A DNA stretch of 38,367 nucleotides from Klebsiella phage vB_KpnP_BUCT711. The stretch lies in sequence record OM816836.1; one strand, written 5' to 3'. The translations under genes and the position numbers were made by a program. Under the pieces are notes generated by a model, which saw only the letters and a program-made list of their open reading frames with translations, made no database searches and was not told the origin of the DNA. This document shows positions 2,066-36,290 of this stretch, one piece after another. Positions within the stretch are counted from its first letter, which is position 1; each line of letters starts with the position of its first letter.

Positions 2066-2517
2066 TCAGCCTCCACCTTGATGCCATCGGCGCGAAGTGC
2101 GTCAGCACATGCAGTGATCGCCTTATTCCAAACTTCAGTTTCTGACCATAGTTGACTACCGGCGTACTCCGCAGGGCAAAATCTTTCATCTGGCAGCTTC
2201 ACGGTGCGGGACTCCAGCTCGGCGATGCGAGACATCACGCGCCGTGTTTTCTCTCTCTCCCGCTCAAGCTCTGTGTCCAGCTCTGCGATGCGGTCTGCCT
2301 GCTGGTCGAAATGGTAGTCTTTAGCTGCCTGGGTTACGTCTCTGCTCTGCACCTTCTCCAGCGCCTCTACCAGTGCGATGACATTGTTTGGGTTAGCCAG
2401 GGCGTAAAATTTCTCCGCCGCCGCACGGCCTTTCGAATACCGGGCGATAATGGCGAGCTCTTTCGCATCGATCGCTGCCGCTTTCAGGCTCTGCGCCAGT
2501 TCGGTGATATCAGTCAT
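2062..2517 (-). CDS. hypothetical coiled-coil protein (Ea22/ead-like region)
   Basis: 151-aa ORF; SD AGGAG 8 nt upstream of ATG at 2517. Confidence 0.55.
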   Translation of the reverse strand: MTDITELAQSLKAAAIDAKELAIIARYSKGRAAAEKFYALANPNNVIALVEALEKVQSRDVTQAAKDYHFDQQADRIAELDTELEREREKTRRVMSRIAELESRTVKLPDERFCPAEYAGSQLWSETEVWNKAITACADALRADGIKVEAE

Positions 2518-2532
2518 GCTGCACGCTCCTGA

Positions 2533-3213
2533 TTAGATGTTATTTGCGAGAAGGCAGAATGCAGTTGCAGCCACGATTGGAACTTGTGCATTTCCAATGG
2601 CTCTGTACCTATCCACCCTAAAGGGAACCCCATCAACCAAGATTGATTCTGGGGAGTAGGTATCCCAAACGCTATGGTGAAATTTCTTGCTGATTCCCAC
2701 TTCTGCATTGACTCTGCCGAGTAATTCGCTTTCGTGGTCGGTGTATGCAAGTAGCCAAAATCTTTCCCGTATGTGGTCAGCACCCATGTCTTTCGCGGAA
2801 AGTTGAACCGCCCTGGTTTTGTAACCCATTGCAATGAGGTCGGTTGCGGCGATGGTGATAGCGTCTTTAGTGACGTTTTCTGCAAAGACAAGACCTGGCT
2901 TAACTTCACTAACGATTCGACGCATTTCTGGCCACATGCTTTTTGCAGTAATTCTTCCTCTTGATGCTTTGCTAAATGCCTGGCATGGAAATCCGCCAGA
3001 TACGATGTCAACAATTCCTCTCCATGGCTTTCCGTCAAAACTGCACACGTCAGACCAAATCGGGAAAGGCTGGAGAATTCCATCGTTTTGTCGTTGCGCG
3101 AGAACTTGTGCGGCGTAGGCATCACGTTCAACTGCGCAAACTGTTCGCCAGCCAAGGAGGTGTCCGCCGAGTATTCCTCCGCCAGCGCCTGCGAAAAGAG
3201 CCAACTCATTCAC
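2533..3213 (-). CDS. DNA (cytosine-5)-methyltransferase, orphan (Dcm-like); GTG start
   Basis: Motif I FAGAGG, motif IV GGFPCQAFS, ENV, motif X AIGNAQVP. GTG at 3213 has SD GGAGGT 5 nt upstream and places motif I near the N-terminus. The track's longer start at 3285 overlaps the upstream gene by 80 nt and is rejected. Confidence 0.85.
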   Translation of the reverse strand: MNELALFAGAGGGILGGHLLGWRTVCAVERDAYAAQVLAQRQNDGILQPFPIWSDVCSFDGKPWRGIVDIVSGGFPCQAFSKASRGRITAKSMWPEMRRIVSEVKPGLVFAENVTKDAITIAATDLIAMGYKTRAVQLSAKDMGADHIRERFWLLAYTDHESELLGRVNAEVGISKKFHHSVWDTYSPESILVDGVPFRVDRYRAIGNAQVPIVAATAFCLLANNI

Positions 3214-3667
3214 CGTTACCTCCGTCGCGCAGCTGATACGCCACCATTGCGCAGATGTTCGGCGCGTCGGTGAAGTCGTCATCATCCGAAGTCACTAGCG
3301 CTCTAACGCAGGCCTCTGCACCTTCAGCCTCAATCCCGGCTACGATGCGATCGGTGGCGGGGGTTTCGATATTCCGCTTAGCCTCATCGACGAGAGTTCT
3401 AATTGGATTCGGGTATTTGTTACGATTACCTGTGCTCTCCATCAGCCCATCGTGTAATGCTGTGTTGCGAAATCCGGCTGTATAAACCTCGTTGCAGGTT
3501 TCAAGCGCGTTTTCGGCAAGAATTGCTCTGCTACTTTTCAGCGCCGCATTCTCCTCAGCCAGCTGCTTAAACGCTTTCGCCAGCTTCAGGAACTTCTGCT
3601 CTCTGATCGACAGCTCGCCTGCGCTCTCCAGGGAAGCGATGAGCTCGTTTACTGTTTCGATGTTCAT
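3206..3667 (-). CDS. hypothetical phage protein
   Basis: 153 aa from internal ATG at 3667 (MNIETVNEL...); the upstream track extension lacks an RBS. Confidence 0.55.
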   Translation of the reverse strand: MNIETVNELIASLESAGELSIREQKFLKLAKAFKQLAEENAALKSSRAILAENALETCNEVYTAGFRNTALHDGLMESTGNRNKYPNPIRTLVDEAKRNIETPATDRIVAGIEAEGAEACVRALVTSDDDDFTDAPNICAMVAYQLRDGGNGE

Positions 3668-4209: not shown

Positions 4210-4224
4210 TTACCTTATTGGTAA
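4210..4224. promoter_or_regulatory. operator-like palindrome TTACCttattGGTAA
   Basis: Perfect TTACC-N5-GGTAA 6 bp upstream of the DUF1064 start codon. Confidence 0.6.
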
Positions 4225-4271: not shown

Positions 4272-4286
4272 TTACCTTTTTGGTAA
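4272..4286. promoter_or_regulatory. operator-like palindrome TTACCtttttGGTAA
   Basis: Perfect site; identical 15-mer to the sites at 6402 and 34570. Confidence 0.6.
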
Positions 4287-4298
4287 ACATTAAGGCGT

Positions 4299-4322
4299 AA
4301 AAAAACGCGCTTCCGCGCTGCG
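4299..4322 (-). terminator. putative rho-independent terminator after the replication gene
   Basis: GC-rich palindromic cluster (GCGC ttcc GCGC / GCGCtGCGC) followed on the minus strand by T7 (plus A-run 4299-4305). Confidence 0.4.
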
Positions 4323-5753: not shown

Positions 5754-5953
5754 GCTGCCACCGTAGAACTGCCGGCCTGCAGCATGAGGCGTTTTATCTC
5801 AGCCTGGCGGCGTTTGTTTGTTTCCATAGTGCACTGCACGCAGTGACCGTTATGCACCCAACGTTCGCTATCATGGCCATGCTTACACGATTTCCCGGTG
5901 TAGTACCGCTTCAGGCCACTGGTAGCTGCTTCAGTCCTGGTAATAATCTTCAT
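5750..5953 (-). CDS. small zinc-finger-like protein
   Basis: 67 aa from ATG at 5953 (SD GAGG); CKHGH...HNGHCVQC cluster; the upstream track extension has no RBS. Confidence 0.55.
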
Positions 5954-6031
5954 CTTCGTAACCTCATTCCGATTGCGATTACGATAATTTTGCAGCAAGC
6001 CAAAAAAAGATCAACCGTATTTGGATAATTA

Positions 6032-6046
6032 TTACCAGATTGGTAT
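6032..6046. promoter_or_regulatory. imperfect operator-like site TTACCagattGGTAt
   Basis: 14 of 15 match; preceded by the conserved extension AATTATTACC. Confidence 0.4.
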
Positions 6047-6099
6047 TCAGGGAAAGGCAGGAGCCGCCTGGGGGTGGCGGCGCGGGTGAGTTTTGAGGA

Positions 6100-6333
6100 T
6101 TAACGTTCGTGGAACCAGAGGACCAGGTCGGATTTTGCGGAGATCCACTTACGGGATTTGCAGGCTTTAAACAGTCTTTCTAACAGAGGCTTACGTGGAA
6201 TTCTTCTACGGCCAGTCAGGTGAACCTGAATGTAGTGGCTGGTCGTGCCGGCGTCACTTGCGAACTCTTCTCGCTCAGCCGGCGAGAGGTCGAGCCAGCA
6301 GCGTTTGAAGTCAAATTTTTGCACATCGCTCAT
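6100..6333 (-). CDS. Cro/YdaS-like HTH DNA-binding protein (first gene of leftward early operon)
   Basis: 77 aa from ATG at 6333 (MSDVQKFDF...); HTH-like EFASDAGTTSHYIQVHLTGRRRIP; divergent from the repressor across the operator cluster. Confidence 0.6.
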   Translation of the reverse strand: MSDVQKFDFKRCWLDLSPAEREEFASDAGTTSHYIQVHLTGRRRIPRKPLLERLFKACKSRKWISAKSDLVLWFHER

Positions 6334-6371
6334 ATTTTTTAGTCCCGGACTAACTTTAGACAGCCTGATTA

Positions 6372-6386
6372 TTACCAATCTGGTGT
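6372..6386. promoter_or_regulatory. imperfect operator TTACCaatctGGTgt
   Basis: In the divergent immunity intergenic region; left half plus extension ATTATTACC conserved. Confidence 0.45.
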
Positions 6387-6401
6387 AAAAATCAATGACT
6401 G

Positions 6402-6416
6402 TTACCTTTTTGGTAA
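6402..6416. promoter_or_regulatory. operator TTACCtttttGGTAA
   Basis: Perfect palindrome in the divergent cro/repressor intergenic region. Confidence 0.7.
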
Positions 6417-6418
6417 GT

Positions 6419-6433
6419 TTACCTTTATGGTAA
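6419..6433. promoter_or_regulatory. operator TTACCtttatGGTAA
   Basis: Perfect palindrome, centre 17 bp from the 6402 site (tandem operators). Confidence 0.7.
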
Positions 6434-6486
6434 TATTCTATTAAATTTAATCAGTTAGGTAACAATTTCAGGCCAAAAAAATAGAA

Positions 6487-7068
6487 ATGAAAAGCATCTA
6501 CGACATAAGGCGCGACAACCTCAACGAGATAATCCGGAAGGATTTCGATAACACGCAACTCCGGTTTGCCGAGAGAATCAAAAAATCAGCTAACCTCGTT
6601 AACAGGTGGAGCAAGGGAACAAAAAATATCGGCGCTAACGCGGCACGCGAGATCGAGTCGTTCGCCGGGAAAGGTCGGTTCTGGCTGGATATCGACCATC
6701 TGTCAGATACCCCGACGCTGCCGGAGATTATCGACCCGCAGGAATGGAGTGTGGAAAAACAGGCAGCGTTTACCCTGGGTGTATGGATGGGTCAGCATTC
6801 GGATCTGAACTCAGAGAAAAAGGTTTCGGAAGCGGCCGGCATCGGCCAGGCGACCGTAAATCGCATCCTGAACTGCGAAGGCTCCACCAGCATTGGCGTA
6901 CTGTCGGCTATCGCCAGGGCGTTCGGCCGCGATGCATATGAGCTGATCCTGCCGCCTGGAAATGCTGGTCTGATTGACTATGACCACCATGAATACGCCG
7001 GGCTGCCGCAGGAAGAGAAAAACAAGATCGCCGCCTTCATCAAGTTCATCGTCAGCCAGAACCAGTAA
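6487..7068 (+). CDS. prophage repressor candidate with two XRE-type HTH domains and no S24 peptidase domain
   Basis: HTH1 QLRFAERIKKSANLVNRWSKG; HTH2 KVSEAAGIGQATVNRILNCEG. Sits in the cI position, divergent from the cro-like gene, flanked by operator clusters. Weak or absent SD (possibly leaderless). Confidence 0.65.
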   Translation: MKSIYDIRRDNLNEIIRKDFDNTQLRFAERIKKSANLVNRWSKGTKNIGANAAREIESFAGKGRFWLDIDHLSDTPTLPEIIDPQEWSVEKQAAFTLGVWMGQHSDLNSEKKVSEAAGIGQATVNRILNCEGSTSIGVLSAIARAFGRDAYELILPPGNAGLIDYDHHEYAGLPQEEKNKIAAFIKFIVSQNQ

Positions 7069-7123
7069 CCTCTAACCTACCTGTTACTCCTGCCAGTGGG
7101 ATAACTCCCCGCGCCTCATGCAC

Positions 7124-7138
7124 TTACCAAAATGGTAA
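7124..7138. promoter_or_regulatory. operator TTACCaaaatGGTAA
   Basis: Perfect site upstream of the -35 of the rightward (PL-like) promoter. Confidence 0.65.
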
Positions 7139-7159
7139 ACTTTTCCTCATCAAATCTAT

Positions 7160-7188
7160 TGACACAACCATAAATTGATCAGATTATT
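7160..7188 (+). promoter_or_regulatory. sigma70-like promoter for the plus-strand recombination operon
   Basis: -35 TTGACA (7160-7165), 17-bp spacer, -10 GATTAT (7183-7188); overlapped by the operator at 7187-7201. Confidence 0.5.
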
Positions 7189-7201
7189 ACCTTAACGGTA
7201 A
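7187..7201. promoter_or_regulatory. operator TTACCttaacGGTAA
   Basis: Perfect site overlapping the -10/+1 of the promoter above. Confidence 0.65.
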
Positions 7202-7261
7202 CAGCAGGGCGTTGAATTACCAGAAATCCACCAACGTGTGGTTTTCTCATACCCCTGATAT

Positions 7262-7275
7262 TTACCAAATGGTAA
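7262..7275. promoter_or_regulatory. operator variant TTACCaaatGGTAA (4-nt spacer)
   Basis: Half-sites perfect, spacer one base shorter; 14 bp upstream of the first small ORF. Confidence 0.4.
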
Positions 7276-7288
7276 TAGTGAGGTGTGT

Positions 7289-7438
7289 ATGCAATGGCAA
7301 ATCATTAACGGCTGGTACTGCGTTACGGCATGCGGGCTGATGAGCTGGAAGTTTCGCACGCTGCCGGAAGCAATCAGCTGGGCATTCGTCAGCAAACTGG
7401 CAGCAAAAACGGAAATGGGTATGGGGGTGAGCAAGTGA
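7289..7438 (+). CDS. small protein (49 aa), first gene of the rightward operon, not in ORF track
   Basis: MQWQIINGWYCVTACGLMSWKF...; SD GAGG 6 nt upstream of ATG; stop overlaps the next start. Confidence 0.35.
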   Translation: MQWQIINGWYCVTACGLMSWKFRTLPEAISWAFVSKLAAKTEMGMGVSK

Positions 7439-7734
7439 ACATTCAGCAGATTAACAACCTGAAAAAAATCATGAACAACATCGACGGCGACTACCAGCTT
7501 AACCAGATGCTGTACGAGCGCCACGTCGAGCTTATCGACGCGATCAAGTTCCATCAGCTGCAAAAGCCATTCTACGAACTGGAGCGCAAAGGCGTGCGCA
7601 GCGAGATCCTGGAAGAGCTGATGATGAGCTCTGAGTTTGAAGAATGCCTGGCCGCGTATCAGCGGGAACTCACCGGCATCATTGCCAAGTGGGATCTGGC
7701 TGACCAGCTGGATACGGCGAGGAACGCGGCATGA
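7435..7734 (+). CDS. hypothetical protein (GTG start; ATG alternative at 7471)
   Basis: Frame of the track ORF 7330..7734; GTG at 7435 preceded by GGGGGTGAG. The antisense ORF 7192..7794 is rejected. Confidence 0.45.
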   Translation: MNIQQINNLKKIMNNIDGDYQLNQMLYERHVELIDAIKFHQLQKPFYELERKGVRSEILEELMMSSEFEECLAAYQRELTGIIAKWDLADQLDTARNAA

Positions 7735-14532: not shown

Positions 14533-16866
14533 TCACACTTTAACTATGCTTGAAATATTTACATCGATAGGTGTTAACCCATCGGTTTCAATAAGTACTG
14601 AGTTTGTTTTATTGGTAGCAGTAAAAGTGAGGCTGGTAGCAGTCTCAAGTTCTCCCTGCGTAATAATGTAGCCTAAGCCAGATGCAGCACCTCTGATATA
14701 AACATCGCCTGTTGATGAGTTATTTCTAACCCATGTAACCTTGTAATTATTACCAACAGTCAAATATTCTATGTTTATATACACACGCGCTTTTGTAGTT
14801 GCTGGAGTAACAGTGATATGTCTTCCGTCGACAGTTAATGTTCCATCGTAGCCAGATGGGATACCGACGTTTAGCGGGCTGTAATAATCATCAAGTTGCA
14901 CCTGTGACTGATTTATAAAATCGATATCAGAAGGCATAAGACCAACCCCAAACCAGCACCTGTCAATGTGAACATACTCGCCTACAGTGCTGCCTGGGAT
15001 AAGACGAATCTGCAGGGTGGTAATGGTTTTAGGTAATAATGCGTGGCAGACAACCCACATCCAGCCGTTTTCTGCCTCATTGGCTTTAGTCCTCGATGTA
15101 ACAGCAGTCATTCCTGTCCCAGATATCTGAAGACGACCTGCGTTTGTAGAAAGACCAGAGTTTTTCCAGATACGAGCAGCAAAGGTCACCCATTGCCCTT
15201 TAAAGGCAAAAAGATAATCACTGAGATCACAATAAAAAAGAGGAGAAGATGTGTTCAAAACTTCAGCTTTTACACTGAACGCAAAAGAATCTCGTCGGGA
15301 AAGATCTCGAGAAACAGCTACTGAGTTCACTGCCCATGAGACTGGTAAAGACGAAAGCCAGGAGTTAAATGCCGGGTTTGGCGCAAGGTTCGGGCGCAAC
15401 GGTCCTGTATACGTCTCAATAACTTTATCAAACTGGAATGCAGGATTGTCGTTCAGCGCCTCTATTGCCACCCCTGCCCACACGTCCATGCCAGCTGCAT
15501 TAGGATGGATAAAGTCGGTATACAGGCTTTCTGGGACACCCAACTCAATGAACTTTGAATAGACATCAATGATACCAAGTCCCTGCACCGCGGCGACCTT
15601 AGCCCAGGCGCTAACAGCTCGCGCTGAATGGTCTGGAAAATCACGCCGCGGGTTCTGTGCCGTAACAATAACAGGAGCACCTGGATTATCTTGCTTCACA
15701 GCAAGAACACCCTCTGTAAATCCTGCCTGAATTGTCAACTCAGGAACGGTTGTCCCTTCATTGTGACCATAGTTTAAAATGACCAGGTCATAAGTTCGAC
15801 CGGAGTTATAGATTTGCGAGCGCATCGCTCCCTGGTAATAACGCTCTGTAGAACCAGGAACAGACACGTTATCAATATAAATTGATCTGCCTGTTGTACC
15901 TGTACTCATTACGATTTCGGGATCCCATCCAGAGCCATCAACAAATAAGCGATAGCGTACACTATGAGTGGGATATTTAGATGCAACCCATGTTGACCAT
16001 TTATAAACCCACTCGAAATCTGAGTTCCCCGTCGAATCACCAAGAATAATAATATAAGCATCTGCCTGCGCGCTTCGCACCTTCTGCCACAATGGAGCTA
16101 CATGAGGCAATGCTTTCGTTAAGTCTAAATATTCTGACACTGTATTACCCTCATGATGACCGATATAAATAGAACCAGTTGGTTTAGCCAATTCAATAAG
16201 CACATCCGCAGCACTGCCACTTTCAGGCAAAACCATAAGTGGATCGCCATTATTATCCATGGCAACTATTTTGTTTTTTCGAAAATCCTTAGCAGGAAGT
16301 ATTGATATTGCGCTTTCAGGCACTCTCATTGTTCTTTTAAACAAATCATCTGAATGGCCTATCGCAGCTGCGTTTAGAGTATCTGTATATTTTTTTGTTG
16401 CAGCATCCTGATCCTGAGATGGGTCACGTAGGTTACGAATACGATTGTTGAGTGCGTCGTAATAGTTAGCGAGCCATGACGGCTTCCTGAGAGATAGCCC
16501 AGACCACCACCCGTATGCCTGCTGAACAAGCATGGTTAGTTTATCGAGAGCATCTTCATGGATCTCCGGGAAAAAGCCACCCTGGTTCCTGATGCTGGCT
16601 TCCTGCGTAACCGGAGTGCTGCGCTCGATAGAGATTTTGTAACCAGCTGGCAGCGCCGATGTCAGCACCACCTTACCCCCGTTGTAGCGGTTCACGCCGG
16701 TAACCGTGTAATCGGTGCCGAGCGTCAGCGTCAAGATGTTTTCGGAGGTATCCAGCGTCTGCACCAGCACGTGGCTTTTATCCAAGATGCGGAACGTGAA
16801 ATCGTATTGGGTAGTGGCGCCGTTACCGGTGTACTCGTTACGGCTTACCTGCGTTGAAACTGTCAT
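14533..16866 (-). CDS. tailspike/tail fiber with T7 gp17-like N-terminal adaptor and central SGNH (GDSL) esterase domain
   Basis: N-term MTVSTQVSRNEYTGNGATTQYDFTFRILDKSHVLV. GDS(T) block IIILGDSTGN (aa ~276), GHNE block, DFIHPN block V. The C-terminal ~300 aa is predicted beta-rich (receptor-binding). Confidence 0.8.
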   Translation of the reverse strand: MTVSTQVSRNEYTGNGATTQYDFTFRILDKSHVLVQTLDTSENILTLTLGTDYTVTGVNRYNGGKVVLTSALPAGYKISIERSTPVTQEASIRNQGGFFPEIHEDALDKLTMLVQQAYGWWSGLSLRKPSWLANYYDALNNRIRNLRDPSQDQDAATKKYTDTLNAAAIGHSDDLFKRTMRVPESAISILPAKDFRKNKIVAMDNNGDPLMVLPESGSAADVLIELAKPTGSIYIGHHEGNTVSEYLDLTKALPHVAPLWQKVRSAQADAYIIILGDSTGNSDFEWVYKWSTWVASKYPTHSVRYRLFVDGSGWDPEIVMSTGTTGRSIYIDNVSVPGSTERYYQGAMRSQIYNSGRTYDLVILNYGHNEGTTVPELTIQAGFTEGVLAVKQDNPGAPVIVTAQNPRRDFPDHSARAVSAWAKVAAVQGLGIIDVYSKFIELGVPESLYTDFIHPNAAGMDVWAGVAIEALNDNPAFQFDKVIETYTGPLRPNLAPNPAFNSWLSSLPVSWAVNSVAVSRDLSRRDSFAFSVKAEVLNTSSPLFYCDLSDYLFAFKGQWVTFAARIWKNSGLSTNAGRLQISGTGMTAVTSRTKANEAENGWMWVVCHALLPKTITTLQIRLIPGSTVGEYVHIDRCWFGVGLMPSDIDFINQSQVQLDDYYSPLNVGIPSGYDGTLTVDGRHITVTPATTKARVYINIEYLTVGNNYKVTWVRNNSSTGDVYIRGAASGLGYIITQGELETATSLTFTATNKTNSVLIETDGLTPIDVNISSIVKV

Positions 16867-16964
16867 AGTCTGCTCCAGTGGTCAGCGCTGGCGCGCGTGT
16901 ATAGAAGCATTCTATTACCCATCAAACCATATATGAATAAAACAGATCAAAACGAGCAAAAACA

Positions 16965-16979
16965 TTACCATTAAGGTAA
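16965..16979. promoter_or_regulatory. operator TTACCattaaGGTAA in the tailspike/moron divergent region
   Basis: Perfect site. Confidence 0.6.
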
Positions 16980-17005: not shown

Positions 17006-17025
17006 ACCTTTTGATATATGTATAT
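17006..17025. promoter_or_regulatory. near-consensus LexA box TATGTATATATATACAGTAT
   Basis: ATGT-N8-ACAG with an (AT)4 spacer; 19 of 20 match to the E. coli consensus; about 30 bp upstream of ORF 17054. Confidence 0.5.
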
Positions 17026-17053
17026 ATATACAGTATTTATCGGAGTAATCCTA

Positions 17054-17314
17054 ATGCCAGAGCGGTACCAGTATCCTGTCGACGAAGGTTTTGCAGATCG
17101 TATTCACACCCCGGAAGGGGTCAGATCCCTGGTTGTAAAATCACAGCTGATGGAGTTGCTCAGGGAAATGGAGCGAGACGGCCACGATGTCAGCGGTGCG
17201 GCGGCGGAACTGGTGGCACTGGTTAACTATGTGACAAGTTCGCAGTTGTCGATGCGGGAGCTGCAAACACACCTGGATTTCTGCGCAATGCAGTTGCGGC
17301 AGCAACTCAGATAG
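17054..17314 (+). CDS. hypothetical small protein in immI-equivalent position (candidate antirepressor)
   Basis: 87 aa from ATG at 17054 (MPERYQYPVDEGF...), SD GGAGT; LexA-like box and an operator upstream. Confidence 0.5.
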   Translation: MPERYQYPVDEGFADRIHTPEGVRSLVVKSQLMELLREMERDGHDVSGAAAELVALVNYVTSSQLSMRELQTHLDFCAMQLRQQLR

Positions 17315-17376
17315 GGATTGATAGCCAGGAAGCACATTTAAAATAATTCTTGACGGACTTCATGGGTGGCTTAAGA

Positions 17377-17391
17377 TTACCGTATTGGTAA
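17377..17391. promoter_or_regulatory. operator TTACCgtattGGTAA
   Basis: Perfect site upstream of ORF 17443. Confidence 0.6.
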
Positions 17392-17442
17392 CTCAACCAT
17401 GTGTTGAGTATCCGCTTGCATTAACGTTTGTTAGAGGTATGT

Positions 17443-17778
17443 ATGAGCAGAAGATATAGCAAAGAGCTGGCTTTAGAGTCAGGGAGCCCTTTGGGTATCG
17501 CTCCTCGCTCTGACTACTCCGGTTTTGTGAAAAGAGACTCATCAACCGGCAAGTTCCTCGAACAAGATATGCGGGTGGTCGGTGATGACTTACGTAGGTC
17601 CGCAACGACCATTTATAAAAAGTACATCATAAAAGATGGGAAAAGAGTTGATGCCCCTCAAGGAAAGATGTTTGCCGTAACTCTACATAAGGAAGGTCTT
17701 GATGCTGCCGGAACACCAAAATCAAGTTCCCCAAGATACGACAAATACGCCAGACTTTACTGGCAAACAAAGCGATAA
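17443..17778 (+). CDS. hypothetical protein
   Basis: 111 aa from ATG 17443 (SD GAGG); overlaps the next gene by 80 nt in another frame. Confidence 0.4.
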   Translation: MSRRYSKELALESGSPLGIAPRSDYSGFVKRDSSTGKFLEQDMRVVGDDLRRSATTIYKKYIIKDGKRVDAPQGKMFAVTLHKEGLDAAGTPKSSSPRYDKYARLYWQTKR

Positions 17779-18247
17779 CCCCGAATTTGAAGAAGTCGAG
17801 GAAGATCTAAGTAAAGAGATCATTGAACATCCGGATGCTTTTTCGCGTGTGCTCGACAGGCCTGAAATTCAAGAAATCGTTGTTGCTCACCACGCATTTC
17901 AAGGCCCGCTACCTCCTCCATATCTTTTACGTGGGTATCAGGAAATCTTACCTGATGCCCCCGAGCGTATCTTTCAACTAACGGAGAGAGAATTTGCTCA
18001 CAGGCATAAGATGGAGGAAAAAGCACTTGATGGCGCCATCAACAGGGATAAAAGAGGACAGCACTACGGTCTAGGCGCTACAATCTTTACCGTCGGTTGT
18101 GCCACCGTCTTAGGCCTGACCGGGCATGAAGTGTTGGCAGGAACGGTCATCGGCATAGTAGTTGCAGTAGCTTGTATTTTTGTTCTCAGGCAAAAACCAA
18201 TCATCAAAAAGAAGCCAGAGAATAACGAAAAACCTGATGAAGAATAG
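17699..18247 (+). CDS. DUF2335-like membrane protein
   Basis: Strong SD AAGGAAGG. Acidic N-terminus; LRGYQEILPDAPERIFQLTEREFAHRH...GLGATIFTVGCATVLGL motif (DUF2335 as remembered); C-terminal TM. Confidence 0.55.
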   Translation: MMLPEHQNQVPQDTTNTPDFTGKQSDNPEFEEVEEDLSKEIIEHPDAFSRVLDRPEIQEIVVAHHAFQGPLPPPYLLRGYQEILPDAPERIFQLTEREFAHRHKMEEKALDGAINRDKRGQHYGLGATIFTVGCATVLGLTGHEVLAGTVIGIVVAVACIFVLRQKPIIKKKPENNEKPDEE

Positions 18248-34569: not shown

Positions 34570-34584
34570 TTACCTTTTTGGTAA
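34570..34584. promoter_or_regulatory. operator TTACCtttttGGTAA between portal-side genes and the tRNA
   Basis: Perfect site, identical to 4272 and 6402; a conserved half-site ATTATTACC lies at 34504-34512. Confidence 0.6.
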
Positions 34585-34899: not shown

Positions 34900-34976
34900 G
34901 TGGCATTAGCTCAGTCGGATAGAGCAACCGCCTTCTAAGCGGTTGGTCGCAGGTTCGAATCCTGCATGCTGCGCCA
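34900..34976 (+). tRNA. tRNA-Arg (anticodon UCU), argU-like, phage-encoded
   Basis: Cloverleaf: acceptor GTGGCAT/ATGCTGC (two G-U pairs); D-arm TAGCTCAGTCGGATAGAGCA; anticodon stem-loop CCGCC-tTCTaa-GCGG(TT); T-arm GCAGGTTCGAATCCTGC; discriminator G then CCA. Confidence 0.8.
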
Positions 34977-35498: not shown

Positions 35499-36290
35499 AT
35501 GTTAGAATCACTTAAAGAATTCACGACATCGACATTCAACACAGCAATGAATCGCGTTAAGAACCCTGCATTCGGTGCTTTCGCAATTTCATGGTGCGCA
35601 TTTAACTGGAAGCAAATACTTTATTTGTTTTTTGCTGATAACGGAATTTATTACAAAATAGAATATATTTCTCAAAATAGCAGTTGGTGGAGCGTAATTA
35701 TTTTACCTGCATTCTCGTCACTTGTTTTATGTGTTGGTTTACCATGGGTTAATAATGCTATAACGAAATGGCAAAGCAAGCCTCTTGACAATGCAGATTC
35801 AATTGAGAATTTCAAGCAGGCGCGCATGATTCAACGCTCCACGCGATTGCAGCGCCTGAAGGCCAAGCATGACGTGACTTACGACAGAGTTAAAACTGGC
35901 GCTGAAAAAGATATCCAATCAATGAAAGAACAAATAACTGAATCTCAGGCAAGAATGGGCGAGCTTACCAGTGAACGAGACGAGTTACGTAAAAAAATAA
36001 ATTTTTTAAATAAAGAAATTCAAAACCTTAAATCAAATATTGAGGACGCAAATTCAATTATCACTGAGAAGAATGAGCGCATTAGCCAGCTTGAAAACTC
36101 AAGAGAATCTTTATTGGCACAATTTAATCTTGACAATGCATCACAACGCACTCCGCTTGCAACGGCTCGAATATCTCCAACAGGTAGCAATATCGATATC
36201 TTAAATAGAAAAATTGACTCTTTATCAAGAAATGGCTACGACTTAAATAAAGAGCTTGCGATAAAAAATTCGGAAAACAAAAAAAATTAG
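35499..36290 (+). CDS. membrane-anchored coiled-coil protein (AT-rich moron; exclusion/abortive-infection candidate)
   Basis: Two N-terminal TM helices then about 170 aa of heptad-like K/E/N-rich sequence; markedly AT-rich versus the genome; own promoter and terminator; stop overlaps the TerL stop convergently. Confidence 0.55.
   Translation: MLESLKEFTTSTFNTAMNRVKNPAFGAFAISWCAFNWKQILYLFFADNGIYYKIEYISQNSSWWSVIILPAFSSLVLCVGLPWVNNAITKWQSKPLDNADSIENFKQARMIQRSTRLQRLKAKHDVTYDRVKTGAEKDIQSMKEQITESQARMGELTSERDELRKKINFLNKEIQNLKSNIEDANSIITEKNERISQLENSRESLLAQFNLDNASQRTPLATARISPTGSNIDILNRKIDSLSRNGYDLNKELAIKNSENKKN

Follow-up and report, generated by a model that had tools for sequence, protein, structure and literature searches.

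The lysogeny control region of Klebsiella phage vB_KpnP_BUCT711 (OM816836.1) is, very probably, the lysis-lysogeny switch of an epsilon15-like (Uetakevirus-like) temperate podophage, operating in the same way as the Rep/Ant system of Salmonella phage SPC32H. The window analysed here (the whole stretch of 38,367 nucleotides) codes for homologues of both proteins of that crystallised pair, and has a conserved layout of operators around the repressor gene, a LexA-like box upstream of the antirepressor gene, and no S24 peptidase domain in the repressor, all of which are seen directly. The initial annotation recognised an immunity region with a 193-aa protein in the cI position, and this is confirmed: the homologues of this protein include SPC32H Rep, phiV10 gp40 and the epsilon15 protein annotated 'repressor'. 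SPC32H has already provided a characterised and crystallised example of a non-cleavable repressor with a small SOS-controlled antirepressor, so the observation is real but of an ordinary, already described kind. SPC32H and SPN1S are syntenic with the window at ~79% nucleotide identity, and the closest relatives of the window are Klebsiella prophage-derived phages (95-99%).

The repressor and its three probable modules

On either side of the immunity repressor gene, rep (6487..7068, plus strand, 193 aa), lies a cluster of three TTACC-N5-GGTAA operators. The gene product is a full-length homologue of SPC32H Rep (63% identity) and shares 65% identity with the repressor of epsilon15. In phmmer searches of PDB, Rep aa 1-192 aligned with residues 2-196 of 5D50 chain A (E=2.5e-76), and aa 89-192 with 5D4Z chain A (E=4.3e-39). 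The initial annotation ascribed to this protein two XRE-type HTH motifs and no autocleavage domain, and proposed a domain search as a check; we ran Pfam on the 193-aa chain, and both points hold. Two stretches of the chain are hit by HTH_3 (E=7e-10), and there is no match to Peptidase_S24 in Pfam (E<=1) or NCBIfam, nor to any other C-terminal catalytic domain, the C-terminal half being homologous to the non-catalytic 5D4Z fragment. When the two stretches are scanned separately, HTH_3 matches aa 109-152 clearly (28.9 bits) but aa 16-62 weakly, the 14.4 bits of the latter falling short of the cut-off. The middle domain is thus the stronger match, so that sequence alone would not single out the DNA binder.

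The domain roles are borrowed from SPC32H Rep (PMC9986798, PMC9638917). By alignment, and with approximate boundaries, the protein would comprise an N-terminal DNA-binding HTH (aa 1-75), a middle HTH-fold dimerisation domain (aa 88-160), and, at aa 161-193, a C-terminal domain for tetramer formation and Ant binding. The last of these, homologous to the corresponding domain of SPC32H Rep, was overlooked in the initial annotation. PMC9986798 gives the domain order of SPC32H Rep as DBD-MDD-CAD and describes Phe187 and Phe190 as a hydrophobic tetramer interface; these two residues align with F184 and F187 of the present protein. Eight phages with the same operator word all carry NLVNRW (aa 36-41), the putative recognition helix, without change, whereas they differ in the corresponding helix of the middle domain.

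Two HTH_3-type folds within one chain, together with palindromic operators made of two 5-bp half-sites, could be taken to mean that each HTH of a single Rep molecule touches one operator half, and the initial annotation had indeed envisaged a monomer on the palindrome, in effect a 'single-chain dimer'. We consider this highly improbable. A palindrome implies identical reading heads, but the HTH domains of Rep are mutually dissimilar (BLASTP, no alignment at E<=100), and their third helices differ (NLVNRW versus ATVNRIL). In SPC32H Rep, the middle HTH dimerises, the C-terminus tetramerises and the tetramer binds through N-terminal pairs; moreover, its fragment 92-198 crystallises as a homotetramer (5D4Z). 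A monomer on the palindrome is unsupported because the SPC32H homologue binds DNA as a tetramer, with the second HTH serving as a dimerisation domain. A recent duplication of the two HTH domains of Rep was also considered and rejected on the same BLASTP result.

Operators and early promoters around rep

The word TTACC-N5-GGTAA occurs in the window 13 times at <=1 mismatch, against 0.59 sites expected, and none of 100 shuffled sequences reached 13. The count of six copies around rep in the initial annotation is correct, but the sites are not confined to that region, as five more perfect copies are found elsewhere in the window. ATTACC-N5-GGTAAT triplets flank rep on both sides and overlap the early promoters, in the same layout as in SPC32H and epsilon15.

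On the cro side, OR1 (TTACCAATCTGGTGT, 6372..6386) has two mismatches and a position kept in eight phages. OR2 (TTACCTTTTTGGTAA, 6402..6416), located by operator-word scan and phage comparison, and OR3 (TTACCTTTATGGTAA, 6419..6433) are perfect, and their starts are 17 bp apart, as had been noted from the sequence. A consensus scan places a PR-like promoter, TTGATT-16-AATAAT, at 6368..6395 on the minus strand, and OR1 falls within its spacer and -10 element. On the other side, the three operators and the TTGACA-17-GATTAT promoter of the initial annotation were all recovered. OL1 (7124..7138, perfect) lies 20 bp upstream of the -35 element of this PL-like promoter (7159..7187, plus strand, 10/12 consensus matches), and the homologous site in the epsilon15 RefSeq record is annotated 'protein_bind repressor'. 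OL2 (7187..7201, perfect) overlaps the end of the -10 element and the start-site region. OL3 (TTACCAAATGGTAA, 7262..7275) directly precedes the ribosome-binding site of the gene at the head of the PL operon; it has perfect half-sites with a 4-nt spacer, which is common to 4/4 Klebsiella relatives, whereas the Salmonella phages have 5 nt. The TTGACA element of PL and the operator after its -10 are conserved in seven phages. The PL-like promoter serves an operon of gp37-like and gp36-like proteins, an exonuclease (DUF3799, PDDEXK-like) and RecT (PF03837).

Across OR from rep lies a Cro-like early gene (6100..6333, minus strand, 77 aa), the first of an operon that continues to phosphatase and replication genes. 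Its product is 66% identical to SPC32H gp042 and matches phrog_35 'transcriptional repressor' (4e-09) and, weakly, HTH_31 of Pfam; NCBIfam gave no useful match for this protein, for Rep or for Ant. The gene position suggests a Cro-like role. One could suppose that immunity is determined by another gene, such as this one, and that the 193-aa protein is an accessory regulator; near-identical proteins in GenBank are indeed labelled only 'XRE family transcriptional regulator'. There is very little chance of this, however, given that the orthologues of Rep are named repressor in epsilon15, SPC32H, SPN1S and PAT1, and that the location of rep between OR and OL, with conserved operators, fits a cI role. 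In addition, overexpression of the phiV10-type orthologue, ZX5 ORF21, blocks the lytic cycle, leaving no free phage and decreasing lysis-gene transcripts by >99.9% (PMC9782041). Homology to named repressors, the effect of ORF21 overexpression and the conserved OR/OL position together support the assignment of the 193-aa protein as the cI-equivalent repressor.

The start of rep

The near-absence of a Shine-Dalgarno sequence at rep, also remarked upon in the initial annotation, is borne out: the best anti-SD pairing is -2.5 kcal/mol, the weakest among 15 genes checked except exo. A plus-strand promoter scan from OR3 to the rep ATG returned no qualifying promoter. By eye, two candidates can be discerned, TTAGGT-N16-AAAAAT, which ends 4 nt before the ATG, and a conserved TTTACC-N18-TAAATT about 40 nt upstream. 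With a promoter close to the ATG, the rep mRNA may be leaderless; the TTTACC-N18-TAAATT candidate would instead yield a leader of ~33 nt. A good -10-like hexamer at 4 nt from the ATG (TACAAT) occurs only in the Salmonella clade; this phage has a poor one (AAAAAT), the phiV10 clade has none, and conservation across the eight phages compared favours neither candidate.

Dispersed operators

The perfect operators outside OR and OL are at 4210, 4272, 16965, 17377 and 34570, all of them intergenic. The first two (4210..4224 and 4272..4286) are upstream of a DUF1064 nuclease-like gene and downstream of a terminator-like hairpin (4319..4304, minus strand); their counterparts are a pair at 35972 and 36034 in SPC32H and an annotated site at 35906 in epsilon15. 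The operator at 34570..34584 stands ahead of the structural gp3-like and portal genes, with counterparts at 3175 in SPC32H and 2931 in epsilon15. The other two flank the antirepressor gene. Just upstream, between the divergent promoters of tailspike and ant, is the operator at 16965..16979, which is invariant in 11/11 related loci and is an annotated repressor site in epsilon15; just downstream is the one at 17377..17391, which overlaps the -10 of a promoter-like sequence, TTGACG-16-TAAGAT (17350..17377, plus strand). An extra, operator-controlled module of two genes is found downstream of ant.

The antirepressor gene and its LexA-like box

The gene for the small antirepressor, ant (17054..17314, plus strand, 86 aa), is immediately adjacent to the divergent tailspike gene (14533..16866, minus strand). 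Ant and its counterpart in SPC32H share 65% identity; in PDB the protein matches chain E of 5D50 (E=2.5e-33), and it belongs to phrog_450. The candidate promoter of ant is TTGATA at 17011, N17, TATTTA, and a LexA-box-like palindrome, ATATGTATATATATACAGTA (17016..17035), lies over this promoter region; a LexA-type palindrome occupies the same place in 11 loci. The initial annotation argued that induction must come from an antirepressor or another indirect route, and this argument gains from the presence of the ant gene in the window and from the published mechanism of the family: according to PMC7380047, which cites Kim & Ryu 2013, a LexA-controlled Ant inactivates the repressor.

The box reads ATGT-N8-ACAG, while the consensus is CTGT-N8-ACAG. 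The right half (ACAGTA) and the (TA)n spacer are canonical, and no canonical LexA box in another register was found upstream of ant. ATGT is present in all Klebsiella copies and in one Superficieibacter prophage, and CTGT in eight other lineages. As the left half is without its C, LexA may control ant less strongly here than it does in SPC32H.

Taken further, this could mean that in the Klebsiella lineage ant is not tightly gated by LexA, and that induction is set by Rep at 16965 and 17377 or by other inputs; it would then be leaky or independent of SOS, with positive feedback between Ant and Rep. We regard such loose gating as unlikely. The deviation is at a core position and is shared by all the Klebsiella copies, and the upstream Rep operator is invariant. 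In the right half, one core substitution, ACAG to AAAG, is the sole difference between SPC32N and SPC32H in the ant region, and SPC32N is said, after Kim and Ryu in 2013, to be a constitutively inducing variant. However, the remainder of the box fits the consensus, with a perfect spacer and a perfect right half; the consistent, non-sporadic conservation of ATGT points to a functional box; and the 16965 operator overlaps neither candidate ant promoter. Some functional SOS boxes of E. coli, for example that of dinG, have one non-canonical half-site, which also counts against loose gating. Control of ant by Rep combined with weakened LexA control would amount to positive feedback between Ant and Rep of a kind not yet described, with induction in part independent of SOS, and to this we give slightly less credence still. 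More remote is the possibility that the well-preserved HTH fold of the middle domain has retained a further DNA-binding function, for instance in looping between dispersed operators.

A model of the switch

Our preferred reading remains a LexA-controlled Ant acting upon an uncleaved tetrameric Rep. The oligomeric state, the identity of the DNA-binding HTH, the resistance to cleavage and the action of Ant are carried over from the SPC32H homologue, at the level of Rep identity given above. In the lysogen, the N-terminal HTH of Rep would read the TTACC-N5-GGTAA palindromes, the middle HTH-fold domain would dimerise, and the short C-terminal strand-helix domain would couple two dimers into a tetramer. 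Tetramers on the OR and OL triplets would keep the divergent cro/replication and exo/recT operons off, and would probably also sit at four to five further promoter regions, on operators that occur there singly or in pairs. Lacking a protease domain, Rep is expected to stay uncleaved on SOS induction. DNA damage would instead inactivate the host LexA, which is predicted to sit on the box over the distant ant promoter; the 86-aa Ant, as a tetramer, would then bind the C-terminal domains of Rep, split its tetramer into dimers and sequester the DNA-binding heads, so that Rep leaves the operators.

According to Kim and coworkers in 2016, SPC32H Rep tetramers reportedly bind DNA via pairs of N-terminal domains and are uncleaved in the SOS response. 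In PMC9638917, SPC32H Rep binds DNA as a tetramer, and an Ant tetramer binds two Rep dimers. The same source and PMC9986798 describe the dimers as weak DNA binders, the N-terminal HTH as the only DNA-binding domain, the second HTH as dimerising, and the last ~35 residues as the tetramerisation and antirepressor-binding domain.

There is little mechanistic news in this, as work from 2013-2016 already describes, with crystal structures, the non-cleavable tetrameric repressor with two HTH folds together with the LexA-controlled antirepressor, and two HTH motifs and operator sites are already in the public records of phiV10 and epsilon15. The practical value is in annotation: the K. pneumoniae prophage genes at present called 'XRE family transcriptional regulator' and 'hypothetical protein' can be renamed Rep and Ant. 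Such prophages are found in ST11 and ST512 carbapenemase-producing clones, and, induction being predicted to be SOS-linked via Ant, DNA-damaging antibiotics would trigger them. Given the common operator word and the invariant recognition helix, Salmonella and Klebsiella members of the group may be cross-immune.

Comparison with known systems

Lambda, with its cI/LexA-type repressor, shares with this phage the position of the repressor gene between OL and OR, three operators per side, divergent PR-like and PRM-like promoters, and a repressor gene co-directional with the recombination operon. Autocleavable repressors of the LexA and lambda cI type have a C-terminal Peptidase_S24 domain, with a Ser/Lys dyad and an Ala-Gly cleavage site. 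Unlike them, Rep is without S24, has an HTH-fold dimerisation and a p53-like tetramerisation domain (PMC9986798), and is induced through an antirepressor. Rco of the Rco/Rap system of Bacillus plasmid pLS20 has an N-terminal XRE DNA-binding domain and a C-terminal 'TetDloop' domain for tetramerisation; a partner protein relieves repression, and looping of the DNA has been suggested (PMC9986798). It differs in having no middle HTH-fold dimerisation domain, and its tetramerisation domain has no sequence homology to that of Rep.

Tum of coliphage 186 and the Gifsy and Fels-2 antirepressors follow the same logic, in which LexA cleavage frees a small antirepressor and the repressor is left uncleaved (PMC7380047). 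They, too, inactivate the repressor via protein-protein contact, but are unrelated to Ant; the SPC32H-type Ant, unlike them, targets the oligomerisation domain and breaks up tetramers (PMC9638917).

Among closer relatives, gp40 of E. coli phage phiV10, identical to ORF21 of E. coli phage vB_EcoP_ZX5, is 45% identical to Rep, and 'two helix-turn-helix motifs (PF01381)' are already mentioned in its GenBank note. These phages share the OR architecture of the present one, but their operators are more divergent, with TCACC and GGTGC half-sites, OL has only two sites, and the repressor gene is followed by a terminator. In Salmonella phage epsilon15 (NC_004775.2; Kropinski et al. 2007, Virology 369:234), gp38 is annotated as repressor. 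Three repressor sites are marked at OL, and others ahead of the terminase gene, ahead of gp3, in the gap that separates the Ant homologue gp19 from the tail fibre, and behind the replication gene; these match the dispersed operators of the present phage. It differs in host and in serotype-conversion cargo, and gp19 is not labelled antirepressor.

The characterised switch of this kind is that of SPC32H (Kim & Ryu 2013, J Virol 87:11775; Kim et al. 2016, PNAS 113:E2480; PDB 5D4Z, 5D50). Apart from the Klebsiella host, this phage differs from SPC32H in a Rep linker, between the N-terminal and middle domains, that is three residues shorter, in the ATGT left LexA half, in the 4-nt spacer of the third OL operator and in the two-gene module after ant. 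Otherwise the two have the same Rep/Ant pair, homologous over its full length, the same three-module Rep with the tetramer-interface phenylalanines kept, the same operator word and OR(3)/OL(3) layout, an ant gene likewise divergent from that of the tailspike, with a LexA-type box over its promoter, and the same genome synteny.

Immunity region and repressor

This temperate Klebsiella podophage belongs to the epsilon15/SPC32H type and is Uetakevirus-like. Across 5900..7500 its identity to three Klebsiella phages, ST11-OXA245phi3.2, ST512-KPC3phi13.3 and Kp4865-1, is 96.7-98.6%; over its first 25 kb it shows synteny, at about 79% identity, with the Salmonella phages SPN1S, SPC32H and SPC32N. The immunity region has the same arrangement as in lambda, mirrored, with the order OR (operator triplet on the cro side), repressor gene, OL (the triplet beyond) with PL, and recombination genes. 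A 77-aa Cro-like gene (6100..6333, minus strand), 66% identical to SPC32H gp042 and matching phrog_35, heads in the opposite direction, towards phosphatase and replication genes. The 193-aa repressor gene, rep (6487..7068, plus strand), is followed on the plus strand by two small conserved genes and those for a PDDEXK-type exonuclease (DUF3799) and RecT. Elsewhere, a C-5 cytosine methyltransferase ORF of 250 aa (2514..3285, minus strand) matches only the first half of its Pfam model (positions 5-166 of 324), and a 231-aa ORF in another frame covers nearly all of it; this gene may be truncated, frameshifted, or endowed with a divergent target-recognition half.

The initial annotation described the rep product, Rep, as an immunity repressor with two HTH motifs and no autocleavage domain. 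Domain searches bear out the motifs and the missing domain, and homology supports the role of immunity repressor, predicted to be non-cleavable. Two stretches match Pfam HTH_3 (E=7e-10); scanned alone, aa 16-62 score 14.4 bits, a weak HTH_3/YdaS-type match, and aa 109-152 score 28.9 bits, a clear match. Pfam and NCBIfam searches found no S24 peptidase domain, and a separate domain scan of the last 38 residues matched nothing. By sequence, the protein is a homologue of the SPC32H repressor over its full length: it matches the Rep-Ant complex, PDB 5D50, with E=2.5e-76 (aa 1-192 against 2-196), and Rep 92-198, PDB 5D4Z, with E=4.3e-39. With the protein annotated 'repressor' in epsilon15, whose RefSeq record cites HHpred 5d50_A, it shares about 65% identity, and with gp40 of phiV10, whose public record (phiV10p40) notes 'two helix-turn-helix motifs (PF01381)', 45%. 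The phiV10 protein is identical to ORF21 of vB_EcoP_ZX5; when ORF21 was overexpressed, no free phage was left and transcription of the lysis genes fell by over 99.9% (PMC9782041).

A two-HTH polypeptide had been thought able to occupy a palindrome as a monomer. According to secondary literature (PMC9986798), SPC32H Rep binds DNA through its N-terminal domain and dimerises through a middle one (MDD); its C-terminal domain (CAD, or 'TetDloop') serves both tetramerisation, with Phe187 and Phe190 at the tetramer interface, and antirepressor binding. The DNA-binding form is a tetramer, dimers bind weakly, and the palindrome is read by a pair of DNA-binding domains drawn from different dimers (PMC9638917). 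The second HTH of the Klebsiella protein is thus, by homology, predicted to be a dimerisation domain, because SPC32H Rep has its MDD at that place. The two HTH domains have no detectable similarity to each other, which makes one chain reading two identical half-sites hard to reconcile with the sequence. Eight phages with a common operator word all keep NLVNRW (aa 36-41), the third helix of the N-terminal HTH, unchanged, whereas the corresponding helix of the middle domain varies among them. The interface phenylalanines are kept as F184 and F187. Together these features agree with the tetramer model; the monomer proposal is not upheld, and it had overlooked the C-terminal oligomerisation and Ant-docking module.

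Operators and promoters

The operator word, TTACC-N5-GGTAA, has 13 matches in the window with at most one mismatch, against 0.59 expected; none of 100 shuffles reached 13. As noticed initially, operators flank rep on both sides: between cro and rep at 6372 (two mismatches), 6402 and 6419 (OR3), the latter two perfect and 17 bp apart, and downstream at 7124 and 7187 (OL2), both perfect, and 7262..7275 (OL3, TTACCAAATGGTAA), with perfect half-sites and a 4-nt spacer. This spacer is common to all four Klebsiella relatives, against 5 nt in the Salmonella phages; being one base shorter, it would rotate the half-sites, and Rep binding is probably weaker. The early PL-like promoter seen in the first reading, TTGACA-17-GATTAT, is present at 7159..7187 (plus strand), with operator 7187 on the end of its -10; its PR-like counterpart, TTGATT-16-AATAAT (6395..6368, minus strand), lies over operator 6372. 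Between OL2 and OL3 the PL leader contains CCACC-AACG-TGTGG-TTTTCTC (7227..7250), a small hairpin with a run rich in T behind it; the stem is a cleaner 5 bp (CCACC/GGTGG) in the Klebsiella relatives, and the Salmonella clade has CCAC-N6-GTGG at this position. The hairpin could be an attenuator or antitermination-type element.

The rep start, as first noted, essentially lacks an SD (anti-SD pairing of -2.5 kcal/mol, the weakest of 15 genes checked except exo). Phages of the Salmonella clade have a good -10, TACAAT, that stops 4 nt short of the rep ATG; the window has AAAAAT in its place, and the phiV10 clade has nothing comparable there. TTTACC-N18-TAAATT, overlapping OR3, is kept in 8/8 phages and, as a promoter, would produce a leader about 33 nt long; a promoter scan returned no qualifying plus-strand promoter for rep. 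The proposed leaderless mRNA is unproven.

All nine perfect operators are intergenic. Outside the immunity region there are five of them and a one-mismatch intergenic site at 6032..6046, all adjoining promoter-like sites or terminators: 4210..4224 and 4272..4286 lie past a terminator-like hairpin, ahead of a DUF1064 nuclease-like gene; 16965..16979 lies between the tailspike promoter and ant, the antirepressor gene; 17377..17391 covers the -10 of TTGACG-16-TAAGAT; and 34570..34584 precedes gp3-like and portal genes. Given these dispersed operators, Rep is probably a genome-wide repressor, of perhaps seven promoter regions and not of PL and PR alone, and seems to repress many promoters directly, some of them ahead of structural genes. 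Near operator 34570 lies a tRNA-Arg(TCT) gene (34900..34976, plus strand); SPC32H likewise has a tRNA-Arg in its equivalent region, past the gene that follows the terminase genes and ahead of the gp3-like/portal genes.

The candidate tailspike promoter, TTCATA-17-TAGAAT (16909..16937, minus strand), is conserved, with an ATTACC half-site (16912..16923) conserved in its spacer and -10, and 11 related loci all carry its sequence block unchanged. The half-site, with a full operator 54 bp away, suggests that Rep may control the tailspike gene, possibly by looping. The 777-aa tailspike/tail-fibre protein (14533..16866, minus strand) has a T7-type tail-fibre N-terminal domain and a GDSL/SGNH esterase domain; this combination suggests that the protein destroys its receptor by deacetylation and not as a glycosidase.

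Antirepressor

Induction through an antirepressor or another indirect route had been anticipated, and tblastn with SPC32H Ant found an 86-aa gene at 17054..17314 (plus strand), 65% identical, whose product matches 5D50 chain E with E=2.5e-33. As in SPC32H, ant is divergent from the tailspike gene. Upstream, over the ant promoter, the LexA-type palindrome ATATGTATATATATACAGTA (17016..17035) occupies the position of TACTGTATGTTTATACAGTG in SPC32H. SPC32N differs from SPC32H, in the aligned 206-nt stretch upstream of ant, solely by ACAG->AAAG in the LexA-type box, a change reportedly found by Kim and Ryu to make Ant constitutive.

A Rep operator, a CTGGA motif, a LexA-type palindrome and a GGAG ribosome-binding site are conserved upstream of ant in 11 related loci, from phages and prophages of Klebsiella, Salmonella, Escherichia, Enterobacter, Citrobacter, Scandinavium, Pseudocitrobacter, Superficieibacter and Erwinia. 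Every Klebsiella copy and the Superficieibacter prophage have the box as ATGT-N8-ACAG, with ATGT for the left CTGT, a substitution that may loosen LexA control; the other genera have canonical CTGT-N8-ACAG. The ATGT variant is accompanied by a 1-nt insertion that turns the -35-like TTGCTA into TTGATA.

In the SPC32H system, LexA self-cleavage leads to Ant production and inhibition of the repressor by protein-protein contact (PMC7380047, citing Kim & Ryu 2013), and the Ant tetramer binds two Rep dimers, breaking the Rep tetramer (PMC9638917). By homology, Ant of the Klebsiella phage would dock on the C-terminal module of Rep and break its tetramer.

Downstream of ant (17350..18247), the promoter-like TTGACG-16-TAAGAT, overlapped by a perfect operator, precedes two overlapping genes, of 111 aa (phrog_10654, no assigned function) and 182 aa (DUF2335 membrane protein, phrog_3996, 'moron' category).

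Comparison with known systems

SPC32H and epsilon15 have operators at equivalent dispersed places. In the epsilon15 RefSeq record the label 'protein_bind, repressor, lysogeny' stands at the three OL sites and at four further places, so repression beyond PL and PR is already annotated for that phage. SPC32H has no two-gene module at the position downstream of ant. This module under operator control, the ATGT half-site and the 4-nt spacer of OL3 are the only points that are mildly unusual. Otherwise, by sequence comparison, the system is a Klebsiella orthologue of a switch already characterised by crystallography and genetics, and the mechanism itself is therefore of little new interest.
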